Below, in pieces: positions 1,665 to 10,245 of a stretch of 47,061 nt of DNA. Each line of letters starts with the position of its first letter. Within the stretch, counting starts at the first letter, position 1. The translations under genes were made by a program, and so were the position numbers. A model generated the notes under the pieces. It was not told the DNA's origin and made no database searches. It saw nothing but the letters and a program-made list of their open reading frames with translations. Origin of the DNA: an uncultured Thermoplasmatales archaeon. GTDB taxonomy: Archaea; Thermoplasmatota; E2; UBA202; DSCA01. The DNA lies in NCBI GenBank assembly GCA_964514975.1, contig CAZESS010000019.1, forward strand, positions 1-47,061, given 5' to 3'.

Positions 1665-3083
1665 ATGCTTTCCAGCGAGGTTATGAACGAGCTCCGTCAG
1701 ACCGTAGCGCATGCGCAGCTTGTCACGTCGGCTGCCGGCCTGTACGCCTATGGATTCGACGCCTCCATCCACCATCGGACGCCCGACCTGGTCGTCCGAC
1801 CCCGGACAACGGAGGAGGTCAGCGCCGTCGTGAAAATCGCCGATGCACATGAGATACCCGTTGTGGCCCGGGGCTCCGGCACCGCGCTGTCGGGGCAGGC
1901 GGTTCCCATCAGGGGCGGCATCGTGCTTGACCTCTCGGGCATGGACAGGGTGCTCGAGGTGAACGTCGAGGACCTCTACTGCGTGGTCGAGCCGGGCGTG
2001 ATCTATGGGAGGCTCAACCGGCAGCTGGCGCCCAAGAAATTCTTTTTTCCGCCGTCGCCGGGCAGCAGCGACGTCTGCACCGTCGGCGGCATGGTTGCCT
2101 GCAACGCCTCGGGGATGCGCGCCATCAAATACGGCGCCACCCGTGACTACGTGCTCGGCCTCGAGGTCGTGTTGCCCGATGGGAGCGTTGCTCACATGGG
2201 CACCCGGACCATCAAAAACTCGTCGGGTTACCAGCTCGAAAAGCTCATGGTGGGCAGCGAGGGAACCCTGGGCGTTATCACCAGGATAACGCTCCGGCTG
2301 CTGCCGCTGCCGAAAAGCCGGGCTATCGCCATTGCCTCGTTCGACGAAATCGAGCAGGCCGGGCAGGGCATCTCAAACATCGTGGCGTCGGGACTTCAGC
2401 CATCGGGCCTGGAAATCATGGACAGCGTATGCATCCGGGCGGTCAACCAGTCCACCGGTGTCGGACTGCCCGATGCAGATGCGATCATCCTGGCCGAGGT
2501 GGACGGCGACGAAGCGGTCATCAGGGAGGACATCGAGGCCATCGCAGACATCTGCCGGGAGAGCGGCGCCACCAAGGTAGACTTCACCCACAAACAGGAG
2601 GAAATGGCGTCCCTGTGGCAGGGCCGGAAGAGCGTGCTGCCGTCGCTGTCGCGCTACGGCGAGGACTCCGTCTCGGTTTCGCTGGCCGACGACATGTCGG
2701 TTCCCATCTCGCGTATCCCCGTCGCTATCAAGCGCTTCCAGGAAATCGCTGACGAGCATGACATCCTGGTCGGCACCTACGGCCACGCGGGTGACGGCAA
2801 CCTGCACACCAAGGTCCTCATCAACCCCCTTGAGGAGGGAAGCTGGGGCCGAGCCGAGGCAGCCGTCGATGCCATCTATGAAACGGTGCTTGAGCTCCAG
2901 GGCACGGTCAGCGGCGAACACGGCATCGGCATCTCCAAGGCGCCCTGGATGCAGCGGGAGCGCCATGACACCCTTAAGCTCATGCATGCCATCAAGCAGG
3001 CCGTCGATCCGAAAAACATCATGAACCCGGGCAAGATTATGCAGTGGCAGGGAAGCATCATCAAATATCTGAGGTACCCGTGA
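1665..3083 (+). CDS. FAD-linked oxidase, GlcD/D-lactate dehydrogenase family
   Basis: ARGSGTALSG, GSEGTLGVIT, GHAGDGNLH, SGEHGIG, DPKNIMNPGK motifs. Confidence 0.93.
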   Translation: MLSSEVMNELRQTVAHAQLVTSAAGLYAYGFDASIHHRTPDLVVRPRTTEEVSAVVKIADAHEIPVVARGSGTALSGQAVPIRGGIVLDLSGMDRVLEVNVEDLYCVVEPGVIYGRLNRQLAPKKFFFPPSPGSSDVCTVGGMVACNASGMRAIKYGATRDYVLGLEVVLPDGSVAHMGTRTIKNSSGYQLEKLMVGSEGTLGVITRITLRLLPLPKSRAIAIASFDEIEQAGQGISNIVASGLQPSGLEIMDSVCIRAVNQSTGVGLPDADAIILAEVDGDEAVIREDIEAIADICRESGATKVDFTHKQEEMASLWQGRKSVLPSLSRYGEDSVSVSLADDMSVPISRIPVAIKRFQEIADEHDILVGTYGHAGDGNLHTKVLINPLEEGSWGRAEAAVDAIYETVLELQGTVSGEHGIGISKAPWMQRERHDTLKLMHAIKQAVDPKNIMNPGKIMQWQGSIIKYLRYP

Positions 3084-3087
3084 TACC

Positions 3088-4104
3088 ATGAAACATCTCG
3101 AGGAAATGAAACACGAGCTCATGTGCTGCACCGGCTGCGGCTACTGCAAACAAAACTGTCCCACGCTGGACATCGGCGGCACCGAGGCGGACAGCGGACG
3201 CGGCAGAGTGTTCCTCTCCTTTGGCCTCCTCACCGGCGAGCTCGAGGAGGAGCAGTCGCTGGTCGAGGCGTTGCAGCGCTGCCCCCTGTGCGGCCGGTGC
3301 GAGCAGGATTGCCCATCCAAGATTCCCATCAGCGACATCATCCAGACAGCCAGGCGTGACCTGACCATGCTGCTGCCATCTCACGAGGAACTAGCCACGC
3401 ATGTCAGAAAGCATGGCACCATCAACGGGGAGGAGCCCCAGCCGGATACCGAGGGCGGCAGCCTCGCATATTTTCCGGGCTGCGTCGCCACCTACCGGGC
3501 GCCCGAGCTCCGCGAGGCAGCCCTCGCCATATTCAACCATCTCGACGTCGACGTCACCATCCTGGAGGGATGCTGCGGCAGCCCGCTGGACGTCATCGGT
3601 GAGGACAACGGCAGGCTGCCCATGATGCGGGAGCGACTGGCCATGCATGACATCGACACCCTGGTGACCGGCTGCCCGAGCGGCCTGCTGGCGCTGCAGC
3701 CCCTCGCCGGCGAGGTGGAGCTGCTGCATCTCTCGGAGTTTGTCCTCCGGCAGGACGTCGACCTGGAAACCTTTGGAGAGCAATTGCTGTACCATGACCC
3801 CTCGGTGCTGGGCCGGAAGCTGGAGATATATGATGCACCCCGCGAGCTGCTCAGCCGGGCCGGCGGCTTCATCGAGTTCGACATGCACCATGAACTGGCG
3901 GGATGCTGCGGCGGCGACCTCGCTTTCTGTACGGCCTTCCCCGAAATGGCGGACGAAATGGCCCGCGAGCTGCGCATCGAGGCAGCCGAAAAACACGCTA
4001 TCGTGGTGACAGCGTCGCCCCAGTGCTACCTCCAGCTCAAAGGTCATAAAGGCCATGGCGACGTCATCGCGCTGGAGCAGGTCATCGCGGCGGGGCTGCG
4101 ATAA
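3088..4104 (+). CDS. Fe-S binding protein (2x4Fe-4S plus CCG domains), GlcF/HdrD-like partner of the oxidase
   Basis: [34 protein letters not shown] and CCGG motifs; starts 4 nt after the upstream stop. Confidence 0.88.
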
Positions 4105-4135
4105 GATTTTATCCCCGTCGTGCGATGTAGGGCCG

Positions 4136-4681
4136 ATGATACCTGACCGCGTCTTTCTCACCAAGGGCGTGGGGCGACATCGAGATAAGCTCCAGTCCTT
4201 CGAGCTGGCGCTCCGCGACGCCGGCATCGAGGTCTGCAACCTGGTCGAGGTCTCAAGCATCGTTCCACCTAACTGCACGATAATCGCCAGGGAGGAGGGC
4301 AAAAAACACATCCGGCCCGGCGAGATAACCTTCTGTGTGATGTCCCAGAACGCGACCGACGAGGCAAACCGGCAGATAGCGGCATCAGTCGGCATGGCGC
4401 TCCCCCGCAACCGTGACCTCTACGGCTACCTGTCCGAATACCACAGCTACGGGGAGCCAGCCAAGCAGGCCGGCGACTACGCCGAGGATTTGGCAGCGAC
4501 GATGCTTGCGACCACGCTCGGCCTGGACTTCGACCCCGAAAAGGCATGGGACGAGCGCAAGCAGGAATACCAGCTCAGCGGACACATCGTGCGCTCCTGG
4601 AACGTGACACAGTCGGCCCGCGGCGCAGCCGGCAAATGGACAACGGTGCTCGCCGCCGCCATCTTTTTGTTCGACGAATAG
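4136..4681 (+). CDS. pdaD: Pyruvoyl-dependent arginine decarboxylase
   Basis: [22 protein letters not shown] self-cleavage motif, [17 protein letters not shown]. Confidence 0.93.
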
Positions 4682-4682
4682 C

Positions 4683-5105
4683 CTATTCGAGCTGCATTTC
4701 AAGCAGCCCCTGTTCGTTCTCCGCCCGGTGGATAACCGCCGGGTCGAGACGCCGGAGCACCACTTCGTTGACCACCATCACCTCGCCGTCCATCAGATGG
4801 CCGCCCACGAGCCGGTGGTCGGAGCCCGCGAGTGCCACATGGATATGGGAGACCACGTCGCCGCTGTCCCGATGCCGCCCGATGTTTCCGTTCATCGACA
4901 CCAGCTCGACCGGCTCATCCAGCGTCTGCGTTTGATAGCCGTCGCCGTCATAGTAGCCGACGGATGCCCCGTCAAGCATGCCGATCCCGGACAGGACGAC
5001 GGCGGAATGGATGTCGTAGCGCCGCGCCAAATCCTCGATGTTCTCCAATGCTTTTCCCTCGGTAAACTTGGCGACATAGATGTCGCCCTGCTCTCTGACC
5101 TGCAT
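4683..5105 (-). CDS. PPC/DUF296 domain protein
   Basis: SGIGML, ELVSMNGNI, HIHVAL...GGHL motifs. Confidence 0.9.
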   Translation of the reverse strand: MQVREQGDIYVAKFTEGKALENIEDLARRYDIHSAVVLSGIGMLDGASVGYYDGDGYQTQTLDEPVELVSMNGNIGRHRDSGDVVSHIHVALAGSDHRLVGGHLMDGEVMVVNEVVLRRLDPAVIHRAENEQGLLEMQLE

Positions 5106-5166
5106 GACTGGAAAAAGGGGTTGTGTGGTAATATGTTTTTCCGTCCGGCTCTTTTTCTATTTTATA

Positions 5167-5201
5167 ATAACAGAAAACGTTATATACCATTTTTCTGTTA
5201 T
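5167..5201. repeat. Palindrome ATAACAGAAAA-N13-TTTTCTGTTAT enclosing the TATA-like box of the HEPN-MNT operon (left cassette end)
   Basis: Perfect 11-bp inverted repeat at 5167-5177/5191-5201 with TTATATA in the spacer. Confidence 0.85.
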
Positions 5202-5221
5202 CGTATAATAGAGATGATGCT

Positions 5222-5566
5222 ATGAAGGAAGTGGACCATTTTCTCAAAGCTGAGGAAATAATGGAAAGCATCAAGGAGCTGGCGGATGAGAACGGGAAGC
5301 ATGTCGTATCCATAGTTGAACTGTGTTACGGTGCTGCCCATCATTTCATTGCCGCCGGGTGTGAACAAAGATACGGCAGACATTATGATACACATGTCGG
5401 GACAGCCGCATTTCTTCGAGAACGGGGAGAAGATGAGACAGCAATTGCGTTTGAACGGCTGGATACCTTTCGCCACGGAAGGTGGTATGGAAACAAAGGA
5501 AATGGAAAAGTGGTGCGAGCATGTCTGACCATAGTAGGCAAGATACGGGAGTGGGCCAGGAAATGA
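5222..5566 (+). CDS. HEPN-domain protein, putative toxin (UPF0332-like)
   Basis: 114-aa helical protein with YGAAHH, THVG and RHGRWY (Rx4Y) motifs; ATGA-coupled to an MNT gene. Confidence 0.65.
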   Translation: MKEVDHFLKAEEIMESIKELADENGKHVVSIVELCYGAAHHFIAAGCEQRYGRHYDTHVGTAAFLRERGEDETAIAFERLDTFRHGRWYGNKGNGKVVRACLTIVGKIREWARK

Positions 5567-6183
5567 TATCGGATGAGATAAAGCCCGCCGTCATCGATTT
5601 CGTCTCGCGAGCTTCAGAGATATCTCATCTGGAGCAAATCATACTCTTTGGCTCTGCGGTTACCGGCGAGTTCCATACAAAAAGCGACATCGACGTACTC
5701 ATGGTGATGGACGTTGAAAACCCTGAGTTCAGCGAAGGAGCAACCAGGGCCCACAGGATTGCCTCTGACATAGCCAAAAAACACAAACTCGGGCATTCGT
5801 TTTCTATGGTATTCGTACAGCCGTCCTTTACTGATGTCGATACTGATTTCCTCTGGCAGGTGGCCAGGGCAGGAATCATCATCTGGGGAAAGCCATCCGT
5901 TGCCGCACAGGAAACACTTGAGCCGTGGATACTCATTTCATATACCTTAAAAGATATGAGCCCGAAACATAAGATGGCCGTCCATCGTGCTTTATACGGA
6001 TATAAGGTGGAGAAGAAAGTGGGAGACAAAGTATACCTCAATGAGCGGGAGGGGATGGTGAACAAAATGGGCGAAAAATTGGGAGAGGCTGTGGTTATGG
6101 TGCCTGCACGAAAAGCGGACCAGGTCCTCGAAGCACTAGATGCGTATGGGACAACGTATTCCCTCAAGAAAATATGGATGTAA
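5563..6183 (+). CDS. Minimal nucleotidyltransferase (MNT) with an extra C-terminal alpha/beta domain
   Basis: IILFGSAVTGE...SDIDVL Pol-beta motif; ATG at 5563 overlaps the HEPN stop; ~85-aa C-terminal extension. Confidence 0.85.
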   Translation: MISDEIKPAVIDFVSRASEISHLEQIILFGSAVTGEFHTKSDIDVLMVMDVENPEFSEGATRAHRIASDIAKKHKLGHSFSMVFVQPSFTDVDTDFLWQVARAGIIIWGKPSVAAQETLEPWILISYTLKDMSPKHKMAVHRALYGYKVEKKVGDKVYLNEREGMVNKMGEKLGEAVVMVPARKADQVLEALDAYGTTYSLKKIWM

Positions 6184-6187
6184 TTAC

Positions 6188-6225
6188 AATAACAGAAAAC
6201 ACGCATCATCCGGTATTCTGTTATT
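6188..6225. repeat. Palindrome AATAACAGAA-N18-TTCTGTTATT (right cassette end)
   Basis: 10-bp inverted repeat at 6188-6197/6216-6225; AATAACAGAAAAC is identical to 5166-5178. Confidence 0.85.
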
Positions 6226-6307
6226 TTATATCAGAATAAGGATGGAACATGATTTCTAGATATGGAAGCCACCGTATCGTGTTGTACTGTTTTCCCTTGC
6301 TTTGCGT

Positions 6308-7162
6308 TTACCCCTCGCCGTGCCACACACCTGGCTTTGTTACGTAGACGAAGACGCCCATGCCTCGTTCGATGGCGAAGTCCATCGCGGGCGGCGAGAT
6401 GCCGACCAGGTATGATGCAAACGTGCTGCTCGATGCGTTCCAGTAGGCCACGATGGTACAGTTGTCGATCGCGGTGCCCAGACCACTCGCGTTTGTTGCT
6501 GTCATATTGTACCAGCCGATGGTGTTCCAGCCGAGGGAGAGAGCAACCGATACTGATGGTTCGGGTGTCTCTATCACGTGGCATGTGCTGTTGCAGGCGA
6601 GGTAGAGGAAGTATCCGACCCCGGTGTGGACCGTGAAGTCCATGGCTGGTGGCGAGATGCCGACGAGGTAGGGCTGGAAGTATCCGAGCGTGGCGTTCCA
6701 GTAGGCAACGATGCTGCAATCGGAGATGTTTTCGCCAAGGCTGCAGGCGGTATGGGTGAACGTGCTGGGGATGGTGACGAGGTTCCAGCCCTGGCAGAGA
6801 TGCATAGGGAGCGGGGGGTGTATCAATGGATGTCCATCCTGGTTGTCGCCTCCGGGGATGGCGTATGGCGTGTCGCCGCTGCCGCCGCCGTCGATGGTGC
6901 AGTTTGCGGTGCCATTTTCCGATTGCAGCGTTATCTGCTTGTTGATGTTTATGTTTTCATAGAGGGTGCCGTCTCGGACGATGATGGTGTCGCCGGCGGA
7001 TGCGTTGTCAACGGCGGCCTGTATCGTGCCGTGGTCGTCCGGAACATATATTGTCGCTCTGGATGTTGCATTCTCGTTTTCGCCTCCCGCTGCTACACTC
7101 AAAGAGATCGTTCCAGCACCTATAAGCACGCCTGCGGCCAGAAAAAGCCATATTTTTTTCAT
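6308..7162 (-). CDS. Secreted NosD/CASH-type surface protein lacking its beta-helix core, with two C-terminal GWN repeats (possible pseudogene)
   Basis: GGGAGGTG SD, signal peptide, YVPDDHGTIQAAVDNASAGDTIIV cap joined directly to GDTPYAIPGGDNQD tail; two ~70-aa repeats sharing YLVGISPPAMDF. Confidence 0.7.
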   Translation of the reverse strand: MKKIWLFLAAGVLIGAGTISLSVAAGGENENATSRATIYVPDDHGTIQAAVDNASAGDTIIVRDGTLYENININKQITLQSENGTANCTIDGGGSGDTPYAIPGGDNQDGHPLIHPPLPMHLCQGWNLVTIPSTFTHTACSLGENISDCSIVAYWNATLGYFQPYLVGISPPAMDFTVHTGVGYFLYLACNSTCHVIETPEPSVSVALSLGWNTIGWYNMTATNASGLGTAIDNCTIVAYWNASSSTFASYLVGISPPAMDFAIERGMGVFVYVTKPGVWHGEG

Positions 7163-7204
7163 GGTTACACCCTCCCATTTTTTGTGGTATGAGGAATATG
7201 TGCA

Positions 7205-7505
7205 GGCCCTGCAACCTGTTTTTAATTCCATATCGAGAAGAAGACAGTTCCATCTCCCAACTAGCGGTAATGCCTCCCTCCGCTATTCCTCACATACAAA
7301 CACACAGACGCTATATATAGCTATCTGTCAACAAGGGAGGGGATGTAGAATGGCTGGTTAATGGATAGATTTTCCCAAGGTTACGAATAGTTGTTTCATC
7401 TCAATTGTATAGGCACTTCCTATACTTTTACTGATTATTCTACATCACCAACAAGGGACATGAAGGGCTTCCCGGGCTGGAAAATACGATACAGGTTGCA
7501 GGGCC
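7205..7505. mobile_element. Putative MITE-like non-autonomous element (301 bp)
   Basis: Perfect 15-bp terminal inverted repeats GGCCCTGCAACCTGT (7205-7219) / ACAGGTTGCAGGGCC (7491-7505), AT-rich non-coding interior; no clear TSD. Confidence 0.5.
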
Positions 7506-7581
7506 ATGTAGTATGTAACCGTCCCGGGAAGCCAGTGACATATCCTGTGGTGGCTATAAAATCATTGTCCCGTCGGTGTAT

Positions 7582-10245
7582 CTAGTCCCAGAACTCTCTC
7601 GTCCGGCTGTAGGTTATCTCGGCCTGGAGGATTTCTTTCAGCAGCGCGTTGCCCTCGAGCTGTTTGCCCAGGATGCGCGCCGCGGTCCGGGGGCCGACGC
7701 CGTAGCCAGCAAGCACCAGCAGCGCCCGTCTGCCGTATTCGGCGACCAGCGAGGCGCTTTTCACCAGCTCGTCCTGCCGCCGGCTGTCGAGGCTGCCCCG
7801 GGCTATTGCGATCATCTGGCTGTCGCATCGGGGGCATTGCAGCTTTGCACGCCTGACGGTGCTGTGCCATTCGTGGCCGCAGTTCATGCAGCGCAGGGTT
7901 ATCCGTGCCTTTGTCAGCCGCTGTTTGAGCGAGCGGAGCACCGCTGCGTCGACGTCGCCGGGCCGGAGGATTTCGCCCCGCGGTGATTCGCCCTTGAGGG
8001 ACATCGGGGAGACATGCTGTATCTGCACTTTGAGCGTGCCGTCGTGGAGCTCCCGGAGCGCCTGCACCGCGTGTTCGATGTCCATTTTTTCCCATATCAC
8101 CCTGTCGATGACCTCCTCCATGAGCGGCATCCCGGAGAACACGTCCATGAGCGTGTCGGTCGACAGCAGGTAGGGGTCGACGTCCTTGCTGAGCACCCCG
8201 AACTTCCGGGAGACCTTGATGAGCTCCCAGCGGATGAAGGAGCTCCTCCGGAGGATGACCCGGAGCAATGCCTCGAGGTTGTCCGGCTCGATGGATTCAA
8301 GTACCTCCCGGACGAGCGATGCGGGTATGGGCCGGGCGATGCGCAGGTAGATGCGGTAGCTGTCGCTGTCCATGCCCACGTTTTGTCCGAGGCGCTGAGC
8401 GAGCAGCGACGCCAGGATGCGGCCGATGGTTTCATTGGTCCGGGTGCCATAATGCGTGGATAGGTAGACGGTTTCCTCGCCGACCTCGATGGTGAGCAGC
8501 CGGTCGGTTGGCACCGCGAAGCCCTCCTGCTGCTGCCGGCTGACCTGTTCCATGATAACTGACTCGGCGTTGCCCTCGCTGGCTTTCCGGCGCATTTTTC
8601 CGACGGCTCTGGCGACATCGAAGGGGACGGGTATCTCCTCGCCGGCCCAGTCCGGGGTCATGCTCGTCCGCCCGGCGGGTGCCACCTTGAGTGTTTCGCC
8701 TCGTTCGACGACCTGCCAGGTCCGCCCCCGCATGATGAACCGCGCTCCTGGCTCGCAGTAGTCGACGACGAAGCTTTCGTCGAGCGTGCCGATTTGTTTG
8801 TTGCTGGACATGTCGACGACGTCGACGTTTTTTTCGTCGGGTATCATCGAGATGTTGTCGAGAAAGTACTGCCGGGATTTCCGCTTGCGGTTGACGCTGC
8901 TGCCGTCGTACCACAGGATGCGCTGCTGGTGGAGCTGCCGGAGCACCGCCTCGAACGTCTCCCGTGATAGCTCATGGAAGGGGGTGGCGCCCTGCACCAG
9001 GCTATACATGGTGTCGCTTTCGATGGTGCGGTATTCCATGGCGATGGAGATAATCTGGTTGGCGAGCACCGCCAGCGGCCTGCGGCGGATGCGGGTTGGC
9101 TCCAGGTTGCCCTGCATCGTCCGCTCGGCGATGACCCTGGCTTCGGCGTAGTCCTCCGGCGTCGTGGCGATGATGGCGCCGCGGGCCGTCGCGCCCGCAC
9201 GATGCTCGCTCCGCCCGATGCGCTGTATCAGCCGGGTGACCTGCCGGGGGGAGTTGAACTGGATGACGTAGTCGGTGCGCCCGACGTCGATGCCGAGCTC
9301 CAGCGAGGAGGTGCAGATGAGCGCCTTTATGTCGCCGTTTTTGAAGGCGTCCTCGGCGGCGATGCGGGTGTCCTTGGACAGGGAGCCATGGTGCACCTCT
9401 ATTGATGCGCCTGCCTCGTGTAGATGAGCGCCGAGCAGCTCGGCGGTGTCCCTGGTGTTGACGAACAGCAGGACCGACACGTGCTCGTCGAGCATGTGCT
9501 GGATAACGCGGAGCATCGCCGCCATCTGGGGGTCGACGCCGAGCTTTGCCGCCGTCTGGTTGTCCGCGTTGGATGCCTCGGGGAGCACGACTTCGATGTC
9601 CATGTCCTTGCCGCTCGACGTCTCGATGATGTCGACGGGACGGCCGCCGCCCAGAAACAGTGCGACCTCGTCCGGGGAGCCCACGGTCGCTGACAGCCCG
9701 ACGCGCTGCACCGGCCCGGCGATGGCCTCGATGCGTTCCAGTGCCACGGCGAGTTGCGCTCCCCGTTCGCTGCTCGCCAGCTCGTGTACCTCGTCGACGA
9801 CCACGTAGCGGACGTCCTCCAGGCTTTTGCGGAGCCGTGAGCCGGTGAACAGTATCTGGACGGTTTCCGGCGTCGTGATGAGCATGTCCGGCGGATGATG
9901 TGACTGCCGCCGTCGTTCCTTCCGGGTGGTGTCGCCGTGGCGGACGGCGATGTCGATATCAAGCTGTTCGCCCCATGACATGGTCCGGCGGAGCATGTCC
10001 CGGTTGAGCGCCCGCAATGGCGTGATATAGAGCAGGCTGACGCCTTCCGCCGTTCCCTCGTTGAGCATTCGCTGGAAAAGCGGTATGAGCGCCGCCTCGG
10101 TTTTGCCCATCCCGGTCGGTGCGATGACCAGGCAGCTGCCGCCATTGAGCAGCGGCTGGAGCGCCCGGCGCTGTGGCTCGGTCAGCTCTTTGATGCTCTC
10201 GCGGTGCATGACCTCCTGGAGCCGGGGATGCAGCCTGTCTTTCAT
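7582..10245 (-). CDS. lhr: Lhr-family SF2 helicase with C-terminal Zn ribbon
   Basis: APTGMGKT, TPLRAL, DEVH, SAT, HHGSLS, SSLELGIDVG, QRIGRSEH; CMNC/CPRC; start overlaps the DUF1614 stop (ATGA). Confidence 0.93.
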   Translation of the reverse strand: MKDRLHPRLQEVMHRESIKELTEPQRRALQPLLNGGSCLVIAPTGMGKTEAALIPLFQRMLNEGTAEGVSLLYITPLRALNRDMLRRTMSWGEQLDIDIAVRHGDTTRKERRRQSHHPPDMLITTPETVQILFTGSRLRKSLEDVRYVVVDEVHELASSERGAQLAVALERIEAIAGPVQRVGLSATVGSPDEVALFLGGGRPVDIIETSSGKDMDIEVVLPEASNADNQTAAKLGVDPQMAAMLRVIQHMLDEHVSVLLFVNTRDTAELLGAHLHEAGASIEVHHGSLSKDTRIAAEDAFKNGDIKALICTSSLELGIDVGRTDYVIQFNSPRQVTRLIQRIGRSEHRAGATARGAIIATTPEDYAEARVIAERTMQGNLEPTRIRRRPLAVLANQIISIAMEYRTIESDTMYSLVQGATPFHELSRETFEAVLRQLHQQRILWYDGSSVNRKRKSRQYFLDNISMIPDEKNVDVVDMSSNKQIGTLDESFVVDYCEPGARFIMRGRTWQVVERGETLKVAPAGRTSMTPDWAGEEIPVPFDVARAVGKMRRKASEGNAESVIMEQVSRQQQEGFAVPTDRLLTIEVGEETVYLSTHYGTRTNETIGRILASLLAQRLGQNVGMDSDSYRIYLRIARPIPASLVREVLESIEPDNLEALLRVILRRSSFIRWELIKVSRKFGVLSKDVDPYLLSTDTLMDVFSGMPLMEEVIDRVIWEKMDIEHAVQALRELHDGTLKVQIQHVSPMSLKGESPRGEILRPGDVDAAVLRSLKQRLTKARITLRCMNCGHEWHSTVRRAKLQCPRCDSQMIAIARGSLDSRRQDELVKSASLVAEYGRRALLVLAGYGVGPRTAARILGKQLEGNALLKEILQAEITYSRTREFWD

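Follow-up and report, generated by a model that had tools for sequence, protein, structure and literature searches.

A 47,061-nucleotide stretch of DNA from an uncultured Thermoplasmatales archaeon (contig CAZESS010000019.1; the whole stretch is called the window below) contains a compact cassette in which a HEPN-like gene and an MNT gene are framed by two palindromic arrays (Table 1). The most abundant toxin-antitoxin modules in archaea include HEPN/MNT pairs, which have been called mobile, though their movement and regulation are poorly known. An original prediction, made from the letters of the window, described the pair as a transposon-like cassette with terminal inverted repeats and a target-site duplication, moved in trans by an enzyme that recognises the palindromes. 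The analyses described here concern the two genes, the arrays, related cassettes in other genomes and the role that the arrays probably play.

Table 1. Positions of the cassette, its parts and the adjoining features in the window.
Feature	Position	Strand	Description
Cassette by homology	5152-6238	+	5' array, HEPN-like gene, MNT gene, 3' array; ~1087 bp
5' array (module B)	5153-5214	.	unit 1 5153-5177, unit 2 5191-5214, ~38 bp centre to centre
HEPN-fold gene, presumed toxin	5222-5566	+	114 amino acids (aa); stop overlaps next start (ATGA)
MNT antitoxin-type gene	5563-6183	+	206 aa; MNT domain aa 20-110, extra basic C-terminal domain aa 115-206
3' array (module A)	6176-6238	.	unit 1 6176-6197, unit 2 6214-6238; inverted repeats
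Block absent from same-genus genomes G001-G004	5107-7582	.	2476 bp: cassette, 307-aa secreted-type gene (- strand), 111-bp MITE (miniature inverted-repeat transposable element), intergenic DNA
Secreted-type gene	6308-7231	-	307 aa; weak NosD-like N-terminal match
MITE	7339-7449	.	111 bp; 13-bp terminal inverted repeats GGGGATGTAGAAT and ATTCTACATCACC (12/13 complementary)

The two genes and their palindromic arrays

The cassette has only two open reading frames, neither of which encodes a recombinase. The protein encoded by the first has no match in Pfam, NCBIfam or PDB sequence searches, and its assignment comes from the modelled fold. The AlphaFold2 model is a helical bundle (predicted local distance difference test score, pLDDT, 85.8) and the top Foldseek rows are HEPN proteins, including 2hsb (template-modelling score 0.70 and probability 1.00, with an E-value of only 1e-2), 1wwp, 1ufb, 1wol, the sacsin HEPN domain 3o10 and the HepT chain 7bxo_F. 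An alignment of eight homologues (alignment A3) reveals a set of invariant residues: H54, D56, H58, G60, R84, G86, R87, W88, Y89, G90 and K92. The Rx4-6H RNase motif is not conserved among these eight sequences, as H85 is replaced by Q in three of them and R79 is variable. Judging from the alignment, the invariant Tyr89, which lies near R84 and R87, is a candidate AMPylation residue.

The second protein is identified more directly. Its residues 20-110 match the Pfam families NTP_transf_2 (1.2e-8) and Polbeta (2e-8), both above the cut-offs, and the NCBIfam model MntA_antitoxin at 3e-8, under that model's cut-off. The AlphaFold model (pLDDT 90.6) places 100 residues of the N-terminal domain on the MNT antitoxin 8xeh_E (Z 13.0, root-mean-square deviation 2.2), Foldseek finds MNT antitoxins at 2.3e-5, and the catalytic residues G30, S31, D42 and D44 (G-S and DxD) are invariant in 23 sequences. 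The original prediction of a HEPN-MNT pair without a recombinase is thus borne out, the MNT protein by Pfam and the HEPN protein by its modelled fold. The remaining C-terminal domain is modelled as a ferredoxin-like beta-alpha-beta arrangement with an inserted Lys-rich beta-hairpin. Its structural matches are generic only (TM1266, Z 8.7; the NikR C-domain, 7.1; the Cas2 protein SSO8090, 6.5), and an ESM Atlas search gives scores of just 0.80-0.81 to unnamed archaeal clusters. This domain carries a positive net charge in all 23 homologues, and in 22 of them the charge reaches +6 or more. In the window the HEPN-like gene comes first, and 20 of 21 related loci have a helical reading frame that stops where the MNT gene starts (in L037 the locus is cut by the contig end).

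The DNA around these genes has the features that had been reported for it. The motif ATAACAGAA has four exact matches in the whole window, at 5167(+), 5193(-), 6189(+) and 6216(-), which form two inverted pairs; with up to one mismatch there are nine matches against 3.33 expected, a count reached by 0 of 100 shuffles. The pairs delimit inner palindromes of 35 bp (5167-5201) and 36 bp (6189-6224). The first encloses a TATA box, TTATATA at 5180-5186, 36 nt upstream of the ATG at 5222, and the second begins 6 nt past the MNT stop (6183). The outer arms of the palindromes are ATAACAGAAAAC and ATAACAGAATAC, with TTTATA alongside at 5161-5166 and 6225-6230, and the region is AT-rich, with a GC content of 0.385-0.51 over 5100-6300 against 0.59-0.675 in the flanking genes.

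Closer inspection shows that these palindromes are parts of larger structures. A direct repeat longer than TTTATA is found at 5162-5178 and 6184-6200 (identical at 16 of 17 positions), and additional half-sites lie outside the inner palindromes: TTTTCTATT at 5153-5161, ATAATAGAG at 5205-5213 and ATATCAGAA at 6228-6236. The palindromic structures therefore reach from about 5153 to 5214 and from about 6176 to 6238. Their basic unit is a tight palindrome composed of TTCTGTTAT, 3-7 bases and ATAACAGAA; two such units ~38-40 bp apart make up an array, and each 35-36-bp palindrome corresponds to the two inner half-sites of a four-half-site array. The 5' array has TTTTCTATT and ATAATAGAG as its outer half-sites, its units bracket TTATATA, its second unit overlaps the expected transcription start and it ends 8 nt before the ATG. 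The 3' array has ATATCAGAA as its outer right half-site and a degenerate outer left one that overlaps the stop codon, and its two units enclose no TATA box.

These structures are confined to the cassette within its genome. The palindrome pattern has no second locus in the 1,955,736 bases of the genome, and 4 of the 12 exact half-sites found genome-wide belong to the cassette. Half-site pairs on contigs C31, C41, C7 and C2 were inspected and none is array-like, nor does any other cluster resemble the arrays.

Related cassettes and their half-site motifs

At E <= 1e-3, an MNT protein with the extra domain is encoded in 6 of 61 related genomes (G000 included), and in five of these it is full-length. 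A species-level genome collection contains 21 near-full-length MNT loci, in records assigned to Thermoplasmata, Methanobacterium, Hadesarchaea, Nanoarchaeota and Methanosarcinales. HEPN-like proteins of the kind seen in the window are uncommon: 7 of 197 genomes of the class encode one. We aligned the window cassette with those of L028, G083 (L179) and L103, the last of which has its 3' end cut by the contig end (alignments A4 and A5).

Similarity starts at the outer left half-site in all four genomic contexts and stops after the outer right half-site in the three with an assembled 3' end (window, L028 and G083). The 5' array aligns column by column in all four, and in each of them two tight palindromes bracket the TATA box. 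The 3' array aligns in the three contexts that extend to it, where it lies 0-11 nt past the MNT stop and is followed by DNA that is unrelated among the three. The L028 cassette, the closest homologue, with an MNT protein 49% identical to the window's, has the same layout and is situated between two convergent genes. G083 has a 69%-identical copy in another context (the homology covers L028 614-1730, outer half-site to outer half-site), and in G065 and G066 the two genes that flank the L028 cassette are adjacent and the cassette is absent. These comparisons support the view that the conserved limits of the cassette coincide with the palindromic arrays.

The same alignments are at odds with TTTATA as a target-site duplication. 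The left copy aligns to TACACA, TATACA and TATATC in the homologous cassettes and the right copy to TTGTAA and TTGAAT. These counterparts occupy positions within the cassette (spacer or half-site), and the left hexamers differ from the right ones.

Array layout is retained in cassettes whose half-sites differ. In the more distant L034-L040, TTCGTTATA-type units stand 39 bp apart around TTTAAATA. In a sister subfamily, whose MNT proteins share 45-46% identity with that of the window, TGTCAC-type units replace the ACAGAA-type units of the window; L189 has them at both ends, L188 at the 3' end and L194 at the 5' end. The genomes G062 (Methanobacterium) and G063 each contain one cassette of either type, and a single host factor is thus unable to account for the two motifs. 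The ACAGAA type, for its part, occurs in two archaeal classes (Thermoplasmata and Methanobacterium records), which implies that the motif travels with the cassette. A motif that changes jointly at both ends, differs within one cell and crosses hosts points to a binder that is itself probably encoded by the cassette.

The arrangement of the arrays also varies. L031 has a complete second array upstream of the promoter array, and extra upstream half-sites are present in L029 and L030. The order is thus A-B-genes in L031 as compared to B-genes-A in the window, L028 and G083, a circular permutation.

Two loci provide further views of the arrays. L188 (G062:C32) includes a Methanobacterium cluster of MNT and HEPN-like genes on the reverse strand at 2100-4330; the HEPN-like frame of its TGTCAC-type cassette is broken, and the intact 3' array precedes another small MNT gene. 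In L006 (G040:C133), positions 115-180 are occupied by an array homologous to the upstream array of L031, spacer included. A gene set that includes an AbiEii toxin (Pfam 5.2e-24) lies on one side of it and the start of another gene, at the end of the contig, on the other, so that this type of array need not accompany HEPN/MNT genes.

Wider searches add little to this distribution. A metagenome scan for the exact palindrome yielded at least 119 stretches, with 80 loci returned. Among the 80 loci listed, each of which has one palindrome, L103 alone is related to the cassette by tblastn; its palindrome surrounds the TATA box upstream of a 44%-identical HEPN-like gene. Eight loci of the recurrent types were inspected, and the seven besides L103 are in bacterial or otherwise unrelated contexts. 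When one mismatch is allowed, ten other genomes among the relatives match, compared to two for a reversed-pattern control, and G040:C133 is the related case among the four inspected. The matches in G023:C33, G024:C12 and G031:C57 (L199, L200 and L201) were rejected as lying inside one orthologous coding gene, where a 31-bp ATAACAG...CTGTTAT palindrome falls within the peptide ...RIDHNSNITLFSVIQ...; this is a coding coincidence unrelated to the cassette. The general system of palindrome-bounded cassettes that had been envisaged is thus not seen: the genome has no other such unit, and the one related locus among the 80 listed has its palindrome as a promoter.

Genomic context and flanking repeats

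The cassette is a discrete, horizontally acquired mobile two-gene unit without a recombinase of its own. To this extent the original prediction of a non-autonomous mobile cassette holds, while the anatomy of terminal inverted repeats (TIRs) and target-site duplication (TSD) and the transposase recognising the palindromes in trans are not supported.

All four same-genus genomes (G001-G004) have the start of the PCC/DUF296 gene (window 5106) ~30 bp from the helicase stop (window 7583), and it follows from this spacing that the extra DNA here is the whole of 5107-7582. The ~30-bp spacer of these genomes contains no TTTATA and has no similarity to 5107-5166, so that the expected clean empty site with a single TTTATA did not materialise. 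The same-genus relatives are just 76-85% identical, and the history may have involved several steps. A 1262-nt contig from a run of another study (X2) spans 5076-6337 with 56 differences, placing the cassette at the same position in a ~95% identical strain, and run X3 provides a 383-nt piece of the MNT gene with four differences. Four public runs contain neither a joint that skips the cassette nor a circle junction, though they were available as contigs only, which are unable to show rare forms.

We examined the flanks of the cassettes for repeats. Outside 5152 and 6238 the window has no shared sequence above shuffles (109 of 300 score as well), and L028 is likewise without a flanking repeat above chance (183 of 300). 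G083 has a diverged 44-nt flanking repeat that 0 of 300 shuffles equal. Within the wider family, flanking direct repeats with at least 20 matching bases are found at 12 of 21 loci, a count made without a shuffle control. In six Thermoplasmatales records (L034-L036 and L038-L040), the repeat is the 5' 20-30 nt of tRNA-Lys(CTT); the cassette is situated between a partial copy and the intact tRNA gene (e.g., L036 3482-3511 and 4689-4718), and the partial copy is 96-100% identical across the six. Hadesarchaea and Nanoarchaeota cassettes have flanking direct repeats of 46-57 nt in which the upstream gene's 3' end is copied (L042 3497-3542/4601-4646; L043 2922-2978/4023-4079; L046 3346-3399/4602-4655), and the related cassettes of L042 and L043 occupy different genes. 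The flanking repeats of L029, L030 and L032 measure 37-150 bp, and those of L029 and L030 do not abut the arrays. No integrase adjoins the cassette copy in G047. The flanking repeats of the family are signatures of site-specific or homology-based integration and not of TIR-plus-TSD transposition; the window cassette itself has none.

At the site that corresponds to L028, G066 contains an unrelated insert of ~170 bp between two copies of ~35 nt from the upstream gene's 3' end (L181, G066:C11, ~1300-1500), which may be a scar or a different mini-element. In the genome of the window there are nine tyrosine-recombinase matches and one for IS200/605 TnpA (Y1_Tnp, contig C18), and no array lies near any of these.

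The MITE, 1.1 kb from the cassette, provides a local contrast, as it has the anatomy that the cassette lacks. Besides true TIRs it has a 9-bp duplication (AACAAGGGA at 7330-7338 and 7450-7458), three identical copies in the genome (C19, C11 and C5) plus one at 84% (C1), and a strain without it: the X2 contig skips 7338-7466. Depth over the MITE is very high in run X4. The C-terminal ~150 aa of the secreted-type gene between cassette and MITE belong to a multi-copy module with more than ten loci in the genome (67-80% nucleotide identity), and the upstream part of the gene (6872-7534) shares 86-93% identity with another G004 locus (C128).

Proposed role of the arrays

We consider it reasonably probable that this is an atypical HEPN/MNT cassette of the type VII HepT-MntA kind in which a product of the cassette itself recognises the two symmetric arrays, with the 5' array as an autoregulatory operator and the 3' array as an auxiliary site. 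The 5' array is a predicted operator in that its palindromic sites lie over the core promoter and are kept with the operon in four cassettes. The MNT antitoxin, or else the complex of toxin and antitoxin, is the most likely binder, and the basic extra domain of the MNT protein would be the best candidate for DNA contact. A precedent exists in Shewanella, where the MNT antitoxin SO_3165 has no recognised DNA-binding domain and yet shifts its own two-palindrome promoter (PMC4621449).

On this model, the cassette's own protein would occupy both four-half-site arrays. As the 5' array lies on both sides of the TATA box and overlaps the expected start, its occupation would shut off the operon. The 3' array would be an auxiliary site that perhaps loops with the promoter array or, alternatively, serves as a roadblock and so shields the cassette from transcription in its neighbourhood. 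Both the apparent terminal inverted repeat and the apparent TTTATA duplication would then be by-products of symmetric site architecture. An operator also fits better than a site for a trans-acting recombinase, since the motif follows the cassette subfamily and not the host and since the 5' copy brackets the TATA box.

Several observations weigh against this interpretation. Neither protein has a recognisable DNA-binding fold, and the C-terminal matches (Z 6.5-8.7) reflect a common arrangement. Toxin-antitoxin operons do not usually have a 3' operator behind their last gene, and the part assigned to the 3' array is a proposal. The cassette ends exactly at the outer half-sites in three contexts, as the ends of a mobilised unit would also do, and the circular permutation of the arrays (L031, L029 and L030 versus window, L028 and G083) is not predicted by a purely regulatory role. 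The relationship between half-site type and MNT similarity is not a simple one either, with TGTCAC-type proteins 45-46% and TTCGTTATA-type proteins 26-28% identical to the window's.

A comparison with known systems helps to place the cassette. It resembles HepT-MntA modules (Shewanella SO_3166/SO_3165 and archaeal HEPN-NT pairs) in combining a Pol-beta-type MNT protein with a small HEPN-fold protein, in the overlap of the two genes and in the palindromic promoter. The two proteins presumably bind each other, as we assume from the family. In Sulfolobus, HEPN-NT pairs occur in several copies, some of them within variable regions (PMC3718332). The cassette differs in having the HEPN gene first, where the HEPN survey calls MNT-first order almost universal (PMC3710099); in the eight HEPN-like homologues that do not conserve Rx4-6H; in the extra basic ferredoxin-like domain of ~90 aa; and in a second site array after the operon. 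According to the same survey, MNT-associated HEPN proteins without Rx4-6H can still be toxic (PMC3710099). Literature searches listed no paper on palindrome-bounded HEPN/MNT cassettes, though the HEPN-NT tables of PMC3718332 and Additional file 1 of PMC3710099 may include the MNT-plus-domain architecture.

Mobile elements offer looser parallels. MITEs and other TIR-TSD transposons share with the cassette short inverted sequences near the ends, the lack of an internal transposase and absence from relatives, but the cassette is single-copy, its inverted 12-mers lie inside the conserved unit and it has no target duplication. Integrase-less att-flanked elements (CIME-like) are similar to distant family members in which 1.1-1.35-kb units without an internal integrase lie between target direct repeats; the window cassette differs by having no flanking repeat, and the L042 and L043 targets are not the same. 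Integron cassettes commonly have toxin-antitoxin cargo and likewise consist of a promoter-proximal gene unit with an imperfect palindrome, in an attC-like place, after the last gene. The unit described here is, however, solitary and not part of a cassette array, its 36-bp palindrome is repeated at the 5' end and its motif is cassette-specific; what we take to be the attC core consensus is not matched. With respect to IS200/IS605 elements, the genome has the single Y1_Tnp match on C18, and the ATAACAGAA palindrome occurs at the cassette locus only.

In the principal alternative, the cassette is a non-autonomous mobile unit with the arrays as its functional ends. It would probably move via a circular intermediate and use the arrays for promoter control secondarily; the actor would be a host tyrosine recombinase or transposase working in trans, or the cassette's own protein bridging the ends. 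This agrees with homology that begins at the outer half-sites in four contexts and ends there in three, with the cassette-free junction of the L028 flanking genes in G065 and G066, with the permuted array order, with the flanking repeats at 12 of 21 loci and the G047 copy that has no integrase beside it, and with the supply of tyrosine-recombinase and TnpA matches in the host. The tight 9-bp arms around 3-7 bp may also resemble recombinase core sites. We nonetheless regard this alternative as unlikely. The window and L028 have neither target duplication nor flanking repeat, TTTATA lies within the cassette, the ends of the cassette do not correspond to the same-genus empty site, the flanking repeats of L029 and L030 stand away from the arrays, and the public contigs, in which rare forms would be invisible, contain no skip joint or circle. 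The arrays are found at no other place in the genome and not near recombinase genes, and a motif that varies between cassettes of one genome makes a shared trans-acting host enzyme improbable. A version that does without such an enzyme is a self-recognising cassette, whose own MNT protein would bind the identical arrays at both termini and bridge the ends, so that the unit would move as a small circle via host recombination. This would account for homology that stops at the outer half-sites, for a subfamily-specific motif at both ends, for the circularly permuted arrays and for the 20-150-bp target-derived repeats of relatives, including the 5' part of tRNA-Lys. It is a speculative and rather doubtful proposal.

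Other explanations concern the 3' palindrome or the palindromes as such. The 3' palindrome could be the leftover promoter-operator of a neighbour that was lost from a former tandem toxin-antitoxin island, and so not a functional part of the cassette. The L188 array in front of another small MNT gene, the G040:C133 array between the AbiEii gene set and another gene start and the TATA-like TTTATAT after the window's 3' palindrome are in keeping with such an origin. A leftover would hardly be expected 0-11 nt past the MNT stop in three cassettes with unrelated downstream DNA, and in the window a convergent gene turns its 3' end towards the 3' array and no conserved reading frame comes after the array; we judge this explanation to be highly unlikely. 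It is more improbable still that the palindromes are terminator or stabiliser hairpins acting as RNA, or chance products of AT-rich DNA. Both regions do fold better than shuffles (z -3.5 and -5.9), 5153-5214 forms one nested palindrome (z -5.9) and a T-rich run follows the 3' palindrome. Against this, the transcript is expected to start downstream of the 5' copy, conservation extends beyond pairing to the half-site sequence itself, the minimum-energy fold of the 3' region does not contain the N18 palindrome, and the T-run is missing after the array in L028 and G083. Rfam, moreover, finds nothing at E <= 1 over 4900-7700, and none of the 100 shuffles reaches the motif count.

The locus and its relatives thus provide a defined cassette boundary and a candidate operator code that changes between subfamilies, with an uncharacterised basic antitoxin domain as the candidate reader of that code. 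Should the 3' array prove purely regulatory, the cassette would be a clear example of a symmetric operator that mimics transposon ends. If it instead turns out to have a role beyond regulation, archaeal cassettes that move without a recombinase would have a model in this family.

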